Positions 5,935-16,672 of a stretch of 16,672 bases of DNA are shown piece after piece. Both the position numbers and the translations under genes were made by a program. The stretch's first letter is position 1. Every line of letters begins with the position of its first letter. Where the stretch lies: the IMG/VR virus record IMGVR_UViG_2850767282_000002; one strand, 5' to 3'. Source of the DNA: a virus. Taxonomy: Duplodnaviria; Heunggongvirae; Uroviricota; Caudoviricetes. Under the pieces are notes generated by a model. It did not search any database and was not told where the DNA came from. It saw nothing but the letters and a program-made list of their open reading frames with translations.

Positions 5935-6019
5935 GGTTCTTTCCACCATCTGAAAAATAACTGGTGATGCCTCTAATTAGTTGAATCTGATGTATAATGC
6001 GGGCTTTTGAGGTTCTTTC

Positions 6020-6292
6020 ATGGCCAGCGTTAACATTCATTGTCCTCGTTGTCAGTCTGCACAGGTCTACCGCCATGGTCAGAACCCTAAAGGCCATGAC
6101 AGATTTCGCTGCCGTGACTGCCACCGCGTTTTTCAGCTCACTTACACTTATGAGGCCCGTAAGCCGGGCATTAAAGAGCTGATCACTGAAATGGCCTTCA
6201 ATGGCGCCGGGGTTCGCGATACCGCCAGGACACTGAAAATTGGCATTAACACCGTCATCCGGACTTTAAAAAACTCACGCCAAAGCGAATAA
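6020..6292 (+). CDS. insA: IS1 InsA (divergent lineage)
   Basis: MASVNIHCPRCQSAQVYRHGQNPKGHDRFRCRDCHRVFQL...; zinc-finger CxxC..CxxC; A6C frameshift motif TTTAAAAAACTC at its 3' end. Confidence 0.9.
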   Translation: MASVNIHCPRCQSAQVYRHGQNPKGHDRFRCRDCHRVFQLTYTYEARKPGIKELITEMAFNGAGVRDTARTLKIGINTVIRTLKNSRQSE

Positions 6293-6317
6293 CGTCTTCG
6301 CCCGTTGCTCATGCTGA

Positions 6318-6715
6318 TGTGGCGCTTATCTGCGAACTTGATGAGCAATGGAGTTTCGTTGGCAGTAAAGCCCGGCAACACTGGCTCTGGTACGCGTATA
6401 ACACCAAAACAGGGGGGGGGACTGGCCTACACTTTTGGTCCCCGTACCGATGAAACCTGCCGGGAACTACTGGCACTGCTTACGCCATTCAACATCGGCA
6501 TGATCACCAGCGACGACTGGGGCAGCTATGGCCGGGAGGTGCCGAAGGATAAGCATCTGACCGGAAAAATATTCACCCAACGGATTGAGCGCAATAACCT
6601 GACGCTGCGCACCCGCATTAAGCGCTTGGCTCGTAAAACAATCTGCTTCTCGCGTTCAGTAGAGATCCACGAAAAAGTCATCGGGACGTTTATTGAAAAA
6701 CACATGTTCTACTAA
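6318..6715 (+). pseudogene. insB: IS1 insB with a +1 frameshift in a poly-G tract
   Basis: G9 run at 6412..6420 where copies 2 and 3 have G7-T; upstream of the tract the InsB N-terminus (VALICELDEQW...) is in one frame and downstream the C-terminus (LAYTFGPRTDET...) continues in the insA frame. Confidence 0.7.
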
Positions 6716-6857
6716 TTGGAAGCATCACCCCATTTACAACGTAGTACCATTCAATAAAACATTCTGGAATTTAATCAAAAACAGCCAGGAATGCCCTACA
6801 AATACAGATAACGTATTGAATGAATGCTTTAATAACCGTTGCACTCTGCAAATATGT

Positions 6858-6889
6858 CCTTATGGACTAAAACAACAAAGTCCATAAGG
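6858..6889. other. perfect 11-bp stem hairpin (CCTTATGGACT / AGTCCATAAGG, 10-nt loop)
   Basis: Inverted repeat read directly from the sequence; not followed by a clear T-tract on either strand. Confidence 0.5.
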
Positions 6890-6904
6890 AGTTTACTCAC
6901 ATCT

Positions 6905-6943
6905 GACAAAATCAATATAAACAGCCCCTCCGGAGAGGGGCTG
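6905..6943 (-). terminator. Rho-independent terminator candidate (minus strand)
   Basis: GC-rich 9-bp stem CAGCCCCTC / GAGGGGCTG with tetraloop CGGA (6922..6943), followed on the minus strand by TTTATATTGATTTTGTC. Confidence 0.5.
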
Positions 6944-7108
6944 GAGAGTGGCGCTATGTGCCATTGCATGGTGCCGGGTGCCTCCCGGTGAATTCAGTAC
7001 CAGCACCTGAATCCGCGATTATCCCATATACCTACTCGCTGATTGCCCCTCCGCACAGGGGGATTTGAGGTGTACTGGCAATAGCGGACACTACCATTTG
7101 TTCTTTTT

Positions 7109-7927
7109 CTAAGCAGCCATCTGATGATATTTTTCCCTGAAGGCTGCCGGGGAGATATTCCCCAGACGAGAGTGACGACGCTGACGATTGTAGAAAATCT
7201 CAATGTATTCCCGTATTACTGAGATGGCTTCATCCCGGTTATTAAAACGATAGTGGCTCAGGCTCTCATTTTTCAGCGTTCCCCAGAAGCTTTCCATCGG
7301 AGCGTTGTCGTAACAGTTACCTTTACGCGACATTGATGTTTTCAGACCAAACTGCTCCTGTATGACCCGGTAATCGTATGCGCAGTACTGTGAACCTCGA
7401 TCAGAGTGGTGGATTAGTCCGGCAGGTGGGCGCTGGCTCCTGAGCGCCATAAACAGGGCTTTACCTGTCAGCTCTTTTGTCATGCGCTCTCCCATGGCGT
7501 AGCCGACAATTTCGCACGTATAAACATCTTTGATGCCAGCGAGGTACAACCATCCCTCCTGTGTGGCAACATACGTCAGGTCCGCCACCCAGACCTGATT
7601 TGGTGCTGTAGGAGCGAACGTCTGGTTCAGCAGATTTGGCGCAACTGGCAGATTGTGGTTCGAGTTCGTAGTCGCTCTGAACTTGCGTTTCTGCTTACAG
7701 CGTAGCCTTAGCTCCTTACGAAGACGTGCCAGTCGGTCACGACCAACGATGATGCCATTCTCTGCCAGCTCCGTCTGGAGCCGCCGGGTTCCATATGTTT
7801 CGCGAGTGCGGATATGTGCCACCTTAATCTCCAGTTTTAGCCGCTCATCACTTTGTTTTCTGTCTGAGGGTTCATGCTGTACCCAGTTGTAATAACCGCT
7901 CCTGGATACACCAAATACCTGACACAT
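7109..7927 (-). CDS. IS600 OrfB (DDE transposase, intact)
   Basis: 272-aa ORF; the undisrupted version of the split orfB in copy A. Confidence 0.9.
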   Translation of the reverse strand: MCQVFGVSRSGYYNWVQHEPSDRKQSDERLKLEIKVAHIRTRETYGTRRLQTELAENGIIVGRDRLARLRKELRLRCKQKRKFRATTNSNHNLPVAPNLLNQTFAPTAPNQVWVADLTYVATQEGWLYLAGIKDVYTCEIVGYAMGERMTKELTGKALFMALRSQRPPAGLIHHSDRGSQYCAYDYRVIQEQFGLKTSMSRKGNCYDNAPMESFWGTLKNESLSHYRFNNRDEAISVIREYIEIFYNRQRRHSRLGNISPAAFREKYHQMAA

Positions 7928-7962
7928 CGCTTCAATGGGAAATTGTTGTCGCCATTGTTCGA

Positions 7963-14350: not shown

Positions 14351-14492
14351 TTTCTCTATCTGCCGTTGGTGTCCATGCCCGAGGCAGATAGCCTCAAGCA
14401 CCCGCAGTCATTCTACTTAACTAAGATTTCCCCGCAAACCGTTTTTGTCCAGCACAGTAAATATCCAACTAAACCAATGGAGTTCGCTGTAT

Positions 14493-14711
14493 TTACCGCC
14501 AGTATTCAATGCACATGACCGCCATGGACACCCCTAAAAAAAGGGCATTTATATATCCAAATATTAATATCAAAACATCAACTTTTTCCATATACCTTGC
14601 TGTGAAGATGATGGGCATACATGATACGAACAACCAGAACGCAACAAACAAAAACTGCAATGCGTTTTTCATTATTCCTCCTACAATCAATGTGCAATTA
14701 CATTTAAACAC
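14493..14711 (-). CDS. hypothetical small membrane protein
   Basis: 72-aa strongly hydrophobic ORF (two predicted TM segments) in an AT-rich tract between the hok leader and IS1 copy 3; unrecognised and could be spurious. Confidence 0.25.
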   Translation of the reverse strand: MFKCNCTLIVGGIMKNALQFLFVAFWLFVSCMPIIFTARYMEKVDVLILIFGYINALFLGVSMAVMCIEYWR

Positions 14712-14754
14712 ACCTCAATTTGGCCGGACATATAAATATCGGTGATGCTTCCAA

Positions 14755-15150
14755 TTAGTAGAACATGTGTTTTTCAATAAACGTCCCGATGACTTTTTCG
14801 TGGATCTCTACTGAACGCGAGAAGCAGATTGTTTTACGAGCCAAGCGCTTAATGCGGGTGCGCAGCGTCAGGTTATTGCGCTCAATCCGTCGGGTGAATA
14901 TTTTTCCGGTCAGATGCTTATCCTTCGGCACTTCCCGGCCATAGCTGCCCCAGTCGTCGCTGGTGATCATGCCGATGTTGAATGGCGTAAGCAGTGCCAG
15001 TAGTTCCCGGCAGGTTTCATCGGTACGGGGACCAAAAGTGTAGGCCAGTACCCCCCCTGTTTTGGTGTTATACGCGTACCAGAGCCAGTGTTGCCGGGCT
15101 TTACTGCCAACGAAACTCCATTGCTCATCAAGTTCGCAGATAAGCGCCAC
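14755..15150 (-). CDS. insB: IS1 InsB (divergent lineage)
   Basis: 131 aa; differs from copy 2 by Q to R (KIFTRRIERNNL). Confidence 0.9.
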   Translation of the reverse strand: MALICELDEQWSFVGSKARQHWLWYAYNTKTGGVLAYTFGPRTDETCRELLALLTPFNIGMITSDDWGSYGREVPKDKHLTGKIFTRRIERNNLTLRTRIKRLARKTICFSRSVEIHEKVIGTFIEKHMFY

Positions 15151-15176
15151 ATCGGCATGAGCAACGGGCGAAGACG

Positions 15177-15449
15177 TTATTCGCTTTGGCGTGAGTTTTT
15201 TAAAGTCCGGATGACGGTGTTAATGCCAATTTTCAGTGTCCTGGCGGTATCGCGAACCCCGGCGCCATTGAAGGCCATTTCAGTGATCAGCTCTTTAATG
15301 CCCGGCTTACGGGCCTCATAAGTGTAAGTGAGCTGAAAAACGCGGTGGCAGTCACGGCAGCGAAATCTGTCATGGCCTTTAGGGTTCTGACCATGGCGGT
15401 AGACCTGTGCAGACTGACAACGAGGACAATGAATGTTAACGCTGGCCAT
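15177..15449 (-). CDS. insA: IS1 InsA (divergent lineage)
   Basis: Identical protein to the other divergent-lineage InsA copies. Confidence 0.9.
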   Translation of the reverse strand: MASVNIHCPRCQSAQVYRHGQNPKGHDRFRCRDCHRVFQLTYTYEARKPGIKELITEMAFNGAGVRDTARTLKIGINTVIRTLKNSRQSE

Positions 15450-15974
15450 GAAAGAACCTCAAAAGCCCGCATTATACATCAGATTCAACTAATTAGAGGC
15501 ATCACCTAAATATCTAAACTAGAAAAAATCACTTACATAGCGTTACAAACTCTTTAGTCTAAAGGTTCATCGTAAAACATTCCCCATACTTATCAGTGCG
15601 TTCCGCGCCAGGTAGCTCATTGCCTTATCTGGCAACCTATAATCAGGTTTCCGCTTTTTCAGTTGGCTGGTCGTTTAACCGACATAGTTAACCCATTAAT
15701 CTAGTTGCCGGATGTTGGTGGATTATCGCGTTTTAGTTGTTCATAAAAGTGCACAGCTTTAACCAGTTTTTCTGATGTAACCGGGACTGGTGAGGCAGTG
15801 AATAAGGCCTGAATTTGATAGTTCGGCCTGTCGTTACAATCCTCTTTTTTCGGTACATATTTCCAGTCACCAGACCACTACTTCCCCTGAAAGTCCGTAA
15901 CGCCTTTTTTCACGTAGCGGGTGATGCTGCCAACTTACTGATTTAGTGTATGATGGTGTTTTTGAGGTGCTCCA

Positions 15975-16250
15975 GTGGCTTCTGTTTCTATCAGCTGTCC
16001 CTCCTGTTCAGCTACTGACGGGGTGGTGCGTAACGGCAAAAGCACTGCCGGACATCAGCGCTATCTCTGCTCTCACTGCCGTAAAACATGGCAACTGCAG
16101 TTCACTTACACCGCTTCTCAACCCGGTACGCACCAGAAAATCATTGATATGGCCATGAATGGCGTTGGATGCCGGGCAACTGCACGCATTATGGGCGTTA
16201 GCCTCAACACGATTTTACGTCACTTAAAAAACTCAGGCCGCAGTCGGTAA
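15975..16250 (+). CDS. insA: IS1 InsA (canonical)
   Basis: Identical to 10249..10524. Confidence 0.92.
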
Positions 16251-16294
16251 CCTCGCGCATACAGCCGGGCAGTGACGTCATCGTCTGCGCGGAA

Positions 16295-16672
16295 ATGGAC
16301 GAACAGTGGGGATACGTCGGGGCTAAATCGCGCCAGCGCTGGCTGTTTTACGCGTATGACAGGCTCCGGAAGACGGTTGTTGCGCACGTATTCGGTGAAC
16401 GCACTATGGCGACGCTGGGGCGTCTTATGAGCCTGCTGTCACCCTTTGACGTGGTGATATGGATGACGGATGGCTGGCCGCTGTATGAATCCCGCCTGAA
16501 GGGAAAGCTGCACGTAATCAGCAAGCGATATACGCAGCGAATTGAGCGGCATAACCTGAATCTGAGGCAGCACCTGGCACGGCTGGGACGGAAGTCGCTG
16601 TCGTTCTCAAAATCGGTGGAGCTGCATGACAAAGTCATCGGGCATTATCTGAACATAAAACACTATCAATAA
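16295..16672 (+). CDS. insB: IS1 InsB (canonical)
   Basis: Identical to 9827..10204. Confidence 0.92.

Follow-up and report, generated by a model that had tools for sequence, protein, structure and literature searches.

Five IS1-family insertions in a lambdoid prophage remnant of Shigella dysenteriae serotype 1, very probably acquired independently and fixed before the lineage diversified

The DNA examined here is a stretch of 16,672 nucleotides (IMG/VR virus record IMGVR_UViG_2850767282_000002, hereafter the window), in which an earlier note, made from the letters alone, had described five copies of two IS1 lineages around a prophage regulatory core. IS1 is an insertion sequence (IS), and the note held that the region was primed for IS1-mediated deletion, inversion or excision as a composite-like unit. 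We defined the IS1-family copies through a repeat search of the whole window and a five-way alignment with 10-bp flanks, and numbered them c1 to c5, with the three copies of the divergent lineage as c1 to c3 and the two canonical copies as c4 and c5. Both approaches recovered the coordinates and strands that had been proposed for c1, c2, c3 and c4, and confirmed that c2 and c3 are direct repeats and c4 and c5 inverted repeats. The second canonical copy, c5, is also present, and it starts at 15920, not at 15919, the earlier boundary having included one extra G. The five copies are as follows.

5963-6729, plus strand: c1, IS1N copy 1; 767 bp, no target-site duplication (TSD), ~410-bp deletion junction, transposase frame broken
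8628-9393, minus strand: c2, IS1N copy 2; 766 bp, insA, insB' and A6C motif intact
14741-15506, minus strand: c3, IS1N copy 3; 766 bp, frames intact
9812-10579, minus strand: c4, IS1SD copy 4; 768 bp, frames intact, 36 bp from tRNA-Arg
15920-16672, plus strand: c5, IS1SD copy 5; first 753 of 768 bp, then the window end; no TSD

All five repeats are genuine IS1-family copies, belonging to the isoforms IS1N and IS1SD. These names follow the RefSeq annotation of near-identical E. coli copies rather than ISfinder itself, with at least 95% nucleotide identity as the isoform criterion: c1 to c3 are 99.6% identical to elements labelled IS1N in E. coli RefSeq genomes, and c4 and c5 are 99.7% identical to elements labelled IS1SD in such genomes. 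Within each lineage, the copies align with one another at 99.5-99.7% identity, and repeats of ~766 bp at an identity of at least 99.5% are far beyond chance. Between the IS1N and IS1SD lineages, the identity is 58%, and the longest common exact word is the 12-nt frameshift site TTAAAAAACTCA. RecA needs longer uninterrupted homology than 12 nt, and homologous recombination would therefore be expected within a lineage only.

The left and right terminal inverted repeats of IS1N both start with GGTGATGC; those of IS1SD start with GGTGATGC at one end and GGTAATGA at the other. All five copies carry insA, followed by TTAAAAAAC (the A6C -1 frameshift motif, position 304-306) and by insB' in the -1 frame. 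Precomputed Pfam matches to PF03811, PF12759, and PF03400 (Zn-ribbon InsA, HTH_Tnp_IS1, and DDE_Tnp_IS1) fall on the called genes of all copies across the loci compared (L002-L010). Both reading frames, insA and insB', run without interruption through c2, c3, and c4, as they do in the part of c5 that the window contains. In c1, a T-to-G change and an extra G produce a G9 run at ~6413-6422 that breaks the insB' frame. The run differs among assemblies: it reads G7T in Sd197 and CP061527, G8 in CP026777, CP026878, and ADUT01, and G9 in the window, CP026782, and CP026786; CP118616.1 is also frameshifted here. Only G9 breaks the transposase frame, and the differences could be real slippage or homopolymer sequencing error.

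The window is a lambdoid prophage remnant at the ttcA site of Shigella dysenteriae serotype 1 (SD1). Over 14,458 bp it matches UAUQ01000013.1 at 100% identity, and its identity to further assemblies, Sd197 (CP000034.1) among them, is 99.8-99.9%. Beyond c5, outside the window, lie the 3' part of another IS600, an integrase fragment, ttcA, dbpA, zntB, and dgcM; beyond the left window end lie sit-like ABC transporter genes, usp, a porin gene, and PFOR. We take the ttcA locus to be the Rac prophage attachment site on the E. coli K-12 map. The lambdoid character is evident from late-regulatory and lysis genes in canonical order and from the integrase fragment adjoining ttcA; the genes run in the order hok/rem, DUF968, rusA, Q, tRNAs ... 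holin, as they do in phage mEp460 and in an intact E. coli prophage. Gene content was called with Pfam, ARAGORN, and Rfam, which bore out the list given in the earlier note (Q, two tRNAs, RusA, DUF968, Rem, and Hok).

10580-14740, minus strand: prophage segment between c4 and c3, holding the tRNAs, Q, rusA, DUF968, rem, hok, and sok
10616-10692: tRNA-Arg(TCT)
10791-10866: tRNA(CAT), called by ARAGORN as tRNA-Met(CAT)
11010-11831: Q antiterminator
11828-12202: rusA
12215-13264: DUF968
13611-13862: rem
14079-14291: hok; Pfam HOK_GEF, E = 3e-23; reading frame intact
14229-14403: sok region; Rfam sok RF01794, 111 bits against a gathering score of 59, full length

The homologue of 10791-10866 in an E. 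coli relative is annotated as tRNA-Ile, and this gene presumably corresponds to the lysidine-modified Ile tRNA carried downstream of Q by lambdoid and Stx-type phages. As the late regulator Q alone survives, with the immunity and early region gone, the expression "regulatory core" overstates what remains. The hok/sok module (14079-14403) is apparently intact, combining a predicted Hok open reading frame (ORF) with an overlapping sok/hok leader RNA.

Three of the five copies carry TSDs of their own. On the plus strand, the 8-bp TSD of c2 reads CCGAAGTT (8620-8627 and 9394-9401), that of c4 TAAGGCTC (9804-9811 and 10580-10587), and that of c3 TAAATATC (14733-14740 and 15507-15514). No TSD flanks c1, where the two sides read AAATAACT and CCATTTAC, or c5, whose far side was read from the identical contig L006, which continues past the window. 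The best E. coli matches are the same prophage segment without any IS, in ~6.9 kb of collinear DNA, and we used the IS-free E. coli prophage in NZ_CM136155.1 (L001) as the reference for mapping. Eight non-IS blocks of the window map onto L001 in the same order and on one strand. Neighboring blocks overlap on L001 by 8, 8, and 8 bp at c2, c4, and c3, by 5 bp at IS2, and by 3 bp at IS600. These overlap lengths equal those of the TSDs, so the insertion sites of c2, c3, and c4 are empty in L001, and the TSDs are independently confirmed. Thus, c2, c3, and c4 are simple independent insertions. The sequence reading had already made this claim from an 8-bp TSD at each of them, noting none at c1, and the empty sites in L001 agree with it.

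The same mapping bears on the history of the locus. Because all blocks keep their ancestral order and strand, no inversion or deletion between IS1 copies has taken place in that history. We also considered whether c1 might have lost its TSD through an inversion with c2 or c3; this was ruled out by the intact TSDs of c2 and c3 and by the ancestral orientation of every block. A single non-IS stretch of the region under study, 13562-13991, is without a nucleotide match to L001; all others have one. It is a mosaic replacement around rem, for which phage mEp460 is a better match than L001.

The missing TSDs of c1 and c5 are explained by their position, as both copies occupy deletion junctions. Beside c1, ~410 bp of L001 (8931-9340) are missing, including the 5' part of iraM. 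At c5, prophage segment G is linked straight to an IS600 at ~position 446 of that element, which is truncated to its 3' part, and the early, immunity, and replication region of L001 is wholly absent beyond this junction. Adjacent deletion by intramolecular transposition is classical IS1 genetics, and the losses at c1 and c5 probably arose by an IS1-type event of this kind; the loss at c5 could alternatively stem from recombination between two IS copies.

To place the locus among strains, we collected eleven distinct assemblies with anchors inside the c2-c3 interval (exact DUF968 protein look-up) and outside it, and compared them by block mapping, insert extraction, and junction 30-mers. In nine of them, every IS1-family junction that each locus reaches is identical; CP026780, one of the nine, is covered only to the left junction of c4. 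The presence of the same insertions at the same base pairs in all interpretable SD1 assemblies indicates that the insertions predate the diversification of the lineage. Because outside anchors were included, genomes that had lost the c2-c3 interval would still be detected, and those anchors retrieved no genome without it. The short-read contig L011 corresponds to window positions 10554-14746 and ends exactly at IS borders, so c4 and c3 bound the segment at the same sites in that sample as well. Most of the other contigs that encode the DUF968 protein likewise measure 2-5 kb (121 of 136 blocks).

Of the two remaining assemblies, one is a structural variant and the other is uninterpretable at this locus; their description requires the segments to the left of c4.

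6730-8627: interval between c1 and c2, consisting of segment C (6730-7065), IS600, and segment D (8330-8627)
7066-8329, minus strand: IS600; 3-bp TSD ATT; 99.8% identity to E. coli copies of IS600
9394-9811: prophage segment E, separating c2 from c4; collinear with L001

Compared with the window, CP118616.1 (L007) has a 3,034-bp deletion of positions 6730-9763, which takes segment C, IS600, segment D, c2, the DUF3927 gene, and all of segment E except its last 48 bp. The deletion begins exactly after the last base of c1, that is, after its right terminal repeat, where ...GCATCACC is joined to AATATTTTC. Its other end is a non-IS site; there is no homology at the junction, and c1 is retained. 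As it ends at a non-IS site, this deletion is not the outcome of recombination between copies, and the anatomy of the junction suggests a transposase-type adjacent deletion. CP006736.1 (L008) was considered as a second structural variant lacking segments C, D, E, and hok/sok. We set it aside because its garbled IS regions are unreliable: they align at 79-92% identity, with many gaps and partial duplicates. This assembly also shows a clean 518-bp loss of exactly 13995-14512 (hok/sok), and it is unreliable here. ADUT01 (L010), which we assume to be a draft of the same strain, has the normal layout.

The remainder of the window, to the left of c1, is also rich in IS elements.

1184-3699, plus strand: outer IS600, interrupted by IS911
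2014-3262: IS911; 3-bp TSD CTA; 99.6% identity to E. coli copies
4110-5440, minus strand: IS2; 1331 bp; 5-bp TSD CCCGT; 99.8% identity to E. coli copies; between the holin gene and a DUF1737 fragment

The outer IS600 lacks a TSD, its flanks reading GGG and GAT. Because it connects the holin region with a tail-fibre fragment (DUF4376, 201-578), it marks a loss of structural genes. IS2 sits just past the holin start codon, in the Q-driven late transcription unit. The repeat search suggested that ~9 bp of flank were common to both IS600 copies (arms 3263-3708 and 7057-7502); the flanks actually differ (GATGCTCC versus AATCCCCC), and the apparent sharing arose because ungapped extension overshoots. 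A match to the Rfam small RNA STnc100 (79 bits; 6911-7094, minus strand) runs at its 5' end into IS600 at 7066, and this small RNA gene appears to be interrupted by the IS. The IS content just left of the five copies varies among strains: Sd197 (CP000034.1) lacks IS911, which most other SD1 assemblies have, CP061527.1 (HNCMB 20080; L012 14364-15055) has genes of an extra IS1-family element in the upstream IS600 region, and CP026782.1 has further IS3-family insertions in that region. Altogether, IS DNA (IS1N, IS1SD, two IS600 copies, IS911, and IS2) makes up 53.6% of the window.

Together, these data make it very probable that IS1N and IS1SD inserted independently into a prophage already in decay, that the insertions became fixed ahead of the diversification of the lineage, and that deletions next to IS copies cut the remnant down. 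The prophage remnant would have served as a neutral landing pad during the known IS expansion of this lineage. Into it, c2, c3, and c4 inserted separately, at sites that are empty in E. coli relatives; IS-adjacent deletions at c1 and c5 would have shortened it, and the surviving DNA keeps its ancestral order and strand. The repeats could act as RecA substrates, IS1N with IS1N and IS1SD with IS1SD only, and no product of such an exchange occurs among the strains sampled.

Several points weigh against this interpretation. The ~410 bp may have been lost from either side of c1. Owing to the G9 run, the transposase frame of c1 is broken both in the window and in CP118616.1, and the CP118616.1 deletion would thus need transposase supplied in trans by another IS1N copy, or it would have to predate the frameshift. 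The sample is small, with eleven assemblies, of which CP006736.1 is uninterpretable and CP026780 partly covered. Short-read contigs break at every IS and are silent on the linkage of blocks, and consensus assemblies cannot show low-frequency recombinants within a culture.

The rival that survives best is an active rearrangement hot spot, in which recombination between the IS1 copies now yields deletions, inversions, and circular excision at appreciable frequency. The substrates are certainly there: direct repeats of 766 bp lie 5.3 kb apart and inverted repeats measure 753-768 bp, at 99.5-99.7% identity. IS-associated inversions are also frequent elsewhere in the lineage, where a comparison of ~20 complete or PacBio SD1 genomes listed 42 of them, from 716 bp to 882 kb (Svab et al. 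2021, PMC7819885), and CP118616.1 does have a deletion at c1. Nevertheless, the junctions that such recombination predicts (deletion or excision for c2 with c3, and inversion for c4 with c5, c1 with c2, and c1 with c3) occur neither in the nine assemblies of common layout, CP026780 being covered to the left junction of c4, nor in CP118616.1. The outside anchors gave no deleted form, and the sole variant, CP118616.1, ends at a non-IS site. None of the 42 listed inversions ends inside 2,267,376-2,295,586 of CP061527.1, the interval that holds this locus, and just one, of 667 kb, spans the entire region (table of PMC7819885). On this evidence, we consider a hot spot unlikely.

These results also answer the proposal that the region is primed for IS1-mediated rearrangement. 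It stands insofar as IS1-family elements have probably caused deletions here, and it fails in that no predicted deletion, inversion, or excision product was seen. The published comparison of SD1 genomes comes close to the check put forward for that proposal, and its inversion table is negative for local rearrangement; the layout is also the same in nine assemblies, as far as each locus reaches. Being primed for rearrangement holds only generically, as it does for any pair of same-family IS copies in this genome.

A second possibility is that hok/sok, lying inside the c2-c3 interval, kills cells that lose the interval, so that selection rather than a low recombination rate explains the missing deletion. 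The interval contains both an unbroken Hok ORF and a sok match that covers the whole Rfam model, and no assembly shows a deletion of it. Toxin-antitoxin systems are described as maintaining the Shigella virulence plasmid (PMC5629016 and a related preprint). Against this, the sample is small enough for the missing deletion to be due to chance, and the killing activity at this locus is a prediction. Many chromosomal hok loci in E. coli are inactive, which counts against retention by hok/sok. CP006736.1 has lost exactly hok/sok (518 bp), which would contradict the idea, but this is the assembly that is unreliable here. We regard the idea as improbable. If true, hok/sok would be an addiction device and would explain why the Q-tRNA-rusA segment, otherwise of no use, persists unrearranged across SD1 despite the 766-bp direct repeats.

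Very little speaks for a composite transposon of the Tn9 or Tn1681 type, in which the c2-c3 or the c4-c5 interval would have arrived as a unit carrying Q, the tRNAs, and hok. Same-family IS copies do flank a passenger, in direct (c2/c3) or inverted (c4/c5) orientation. However, the IS copies that have a TSD each have their own, the outer flanks of the c2-c3 unit differ (CCGAAGTT versus TAAATATC), and c5 has none. Moreover, in L001, which has no IS, the passenger runs without a break into its outer flank on either side. A search of plasmids and phages for a moved c4-c3 interval returned only ordinary lambdoid homologues at about 97% identity or less; the best plasmid match to the passenger reaches 97.3%, so that plasmids have no near-identical copy, and each genome has the passenger at one place only. 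With a native passenger, differing outer flanks, and no copy elsewhere, the composite-transposon reading fails for the past, and so does the suggestion of movement as a composite-like unit, for which there is neither an outer TSD nor a second copy elsewhere. It is least credible of all that the repeats are assembly artefacts, with IS copies misplaced or duplicated: CP006736.1 is indeed garbled here, with IS fragments at 79-92% identity, but nine assemblies made independently, by PacBio and hybrid Nanopore sequencing among other methods, share the same junctions (and the Sd197 assembly is, we presume, Sanger), and short-read contig ends coincide exactly with IS boundaries (L011).

Independent insertion followed by trimming makes the locus a clear illustration of the way in which independent insertions build up in a defunct prophage of an IS-saturated pathogen while IS-adjacent deletions shrink it. 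Many same-family IS copies are the expected background in Shigella; they argue neither for a composite element nor for rearrangement that is still going on. The feature is ordinary for this organism and is already documented at the genome level; its significance beyond annotation is small.

Comparison with known systems places the locus among familiar ones. IS1N, the divergent iso-IS1 of Shigella dysenteriae, and IS1SD have the same length of 766-768 bp, the same termini and frameshift layout, and the same 8-bp TSD as the window copies, with no difference of substance; c1 alone has the G9 run that breaks insB'. In classical IS1 adjacent deletion, the IS is kept, and the deletion starts at its terminal repeat and ends at an unrelated site with no homology, as in CP118616.1; c1 in turn shares with it the lack of a TSD and the ~410 bp gone beside the IS. 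Here it is the junction anatomy that suggests the mechanism, and the c1 transposase is frameshifted in the G9 strains.

Tn9 and the r-determinant of R100/NR1 have direct IS1 copies, and Tn1681 has inverted ones. As in these elements, two IS1-family copies here bracket a few kb of passenger; unlike Tn9 and Tn1681, the locus has no shared outer TSD, its passenger is native, and there is no sign that the unit ever moved. The Stx prophage of S. dysenteriae 1, whose toxin segment lies between IS copies, is likewise a defective lambdoid prophage of the same organism, at a different locus. Its Shiga toxin operon reportedly undergoes spontaneous amplification and deletion, according to the title of a 1999 report by McDonough and Butterton. 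Unlike that region, the locus shows no amplification or inter-IS deletion in the assemblies sampled.

The locus itself corresponds to PHASTER "Region 15" of S. dysenteriae HNCMB 20080 (CP061527.1 2,267,376-2,295,586), for which lambdoid remnants, transposases, and a manganese ABC transporter were described and which every complete SD1 genome was said to contain (PMC7819885). That description did not dissect the individual IS copies, TSDs, and deletion junctions set out above. More broadly, Shigella reference chromosomes carry 229-348 IS each, with IS1, IS2, IS4, IS600, and IS911 expanded, and in S. dysenteriae type 1 most IS sites are fixed (Hawkey et al. 2020, PMC7373316, with Yang et al. 2005 cited there). 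The same families, nested IS, and fixed sites that mark this history of expansion and decay are all seen at this locus. Its share of 53.6% IS DNA is, judged against IS counts per chromosome, probably well above the Shigella genome average, and such a high share would fit a dead prophage that tolerates insertions.

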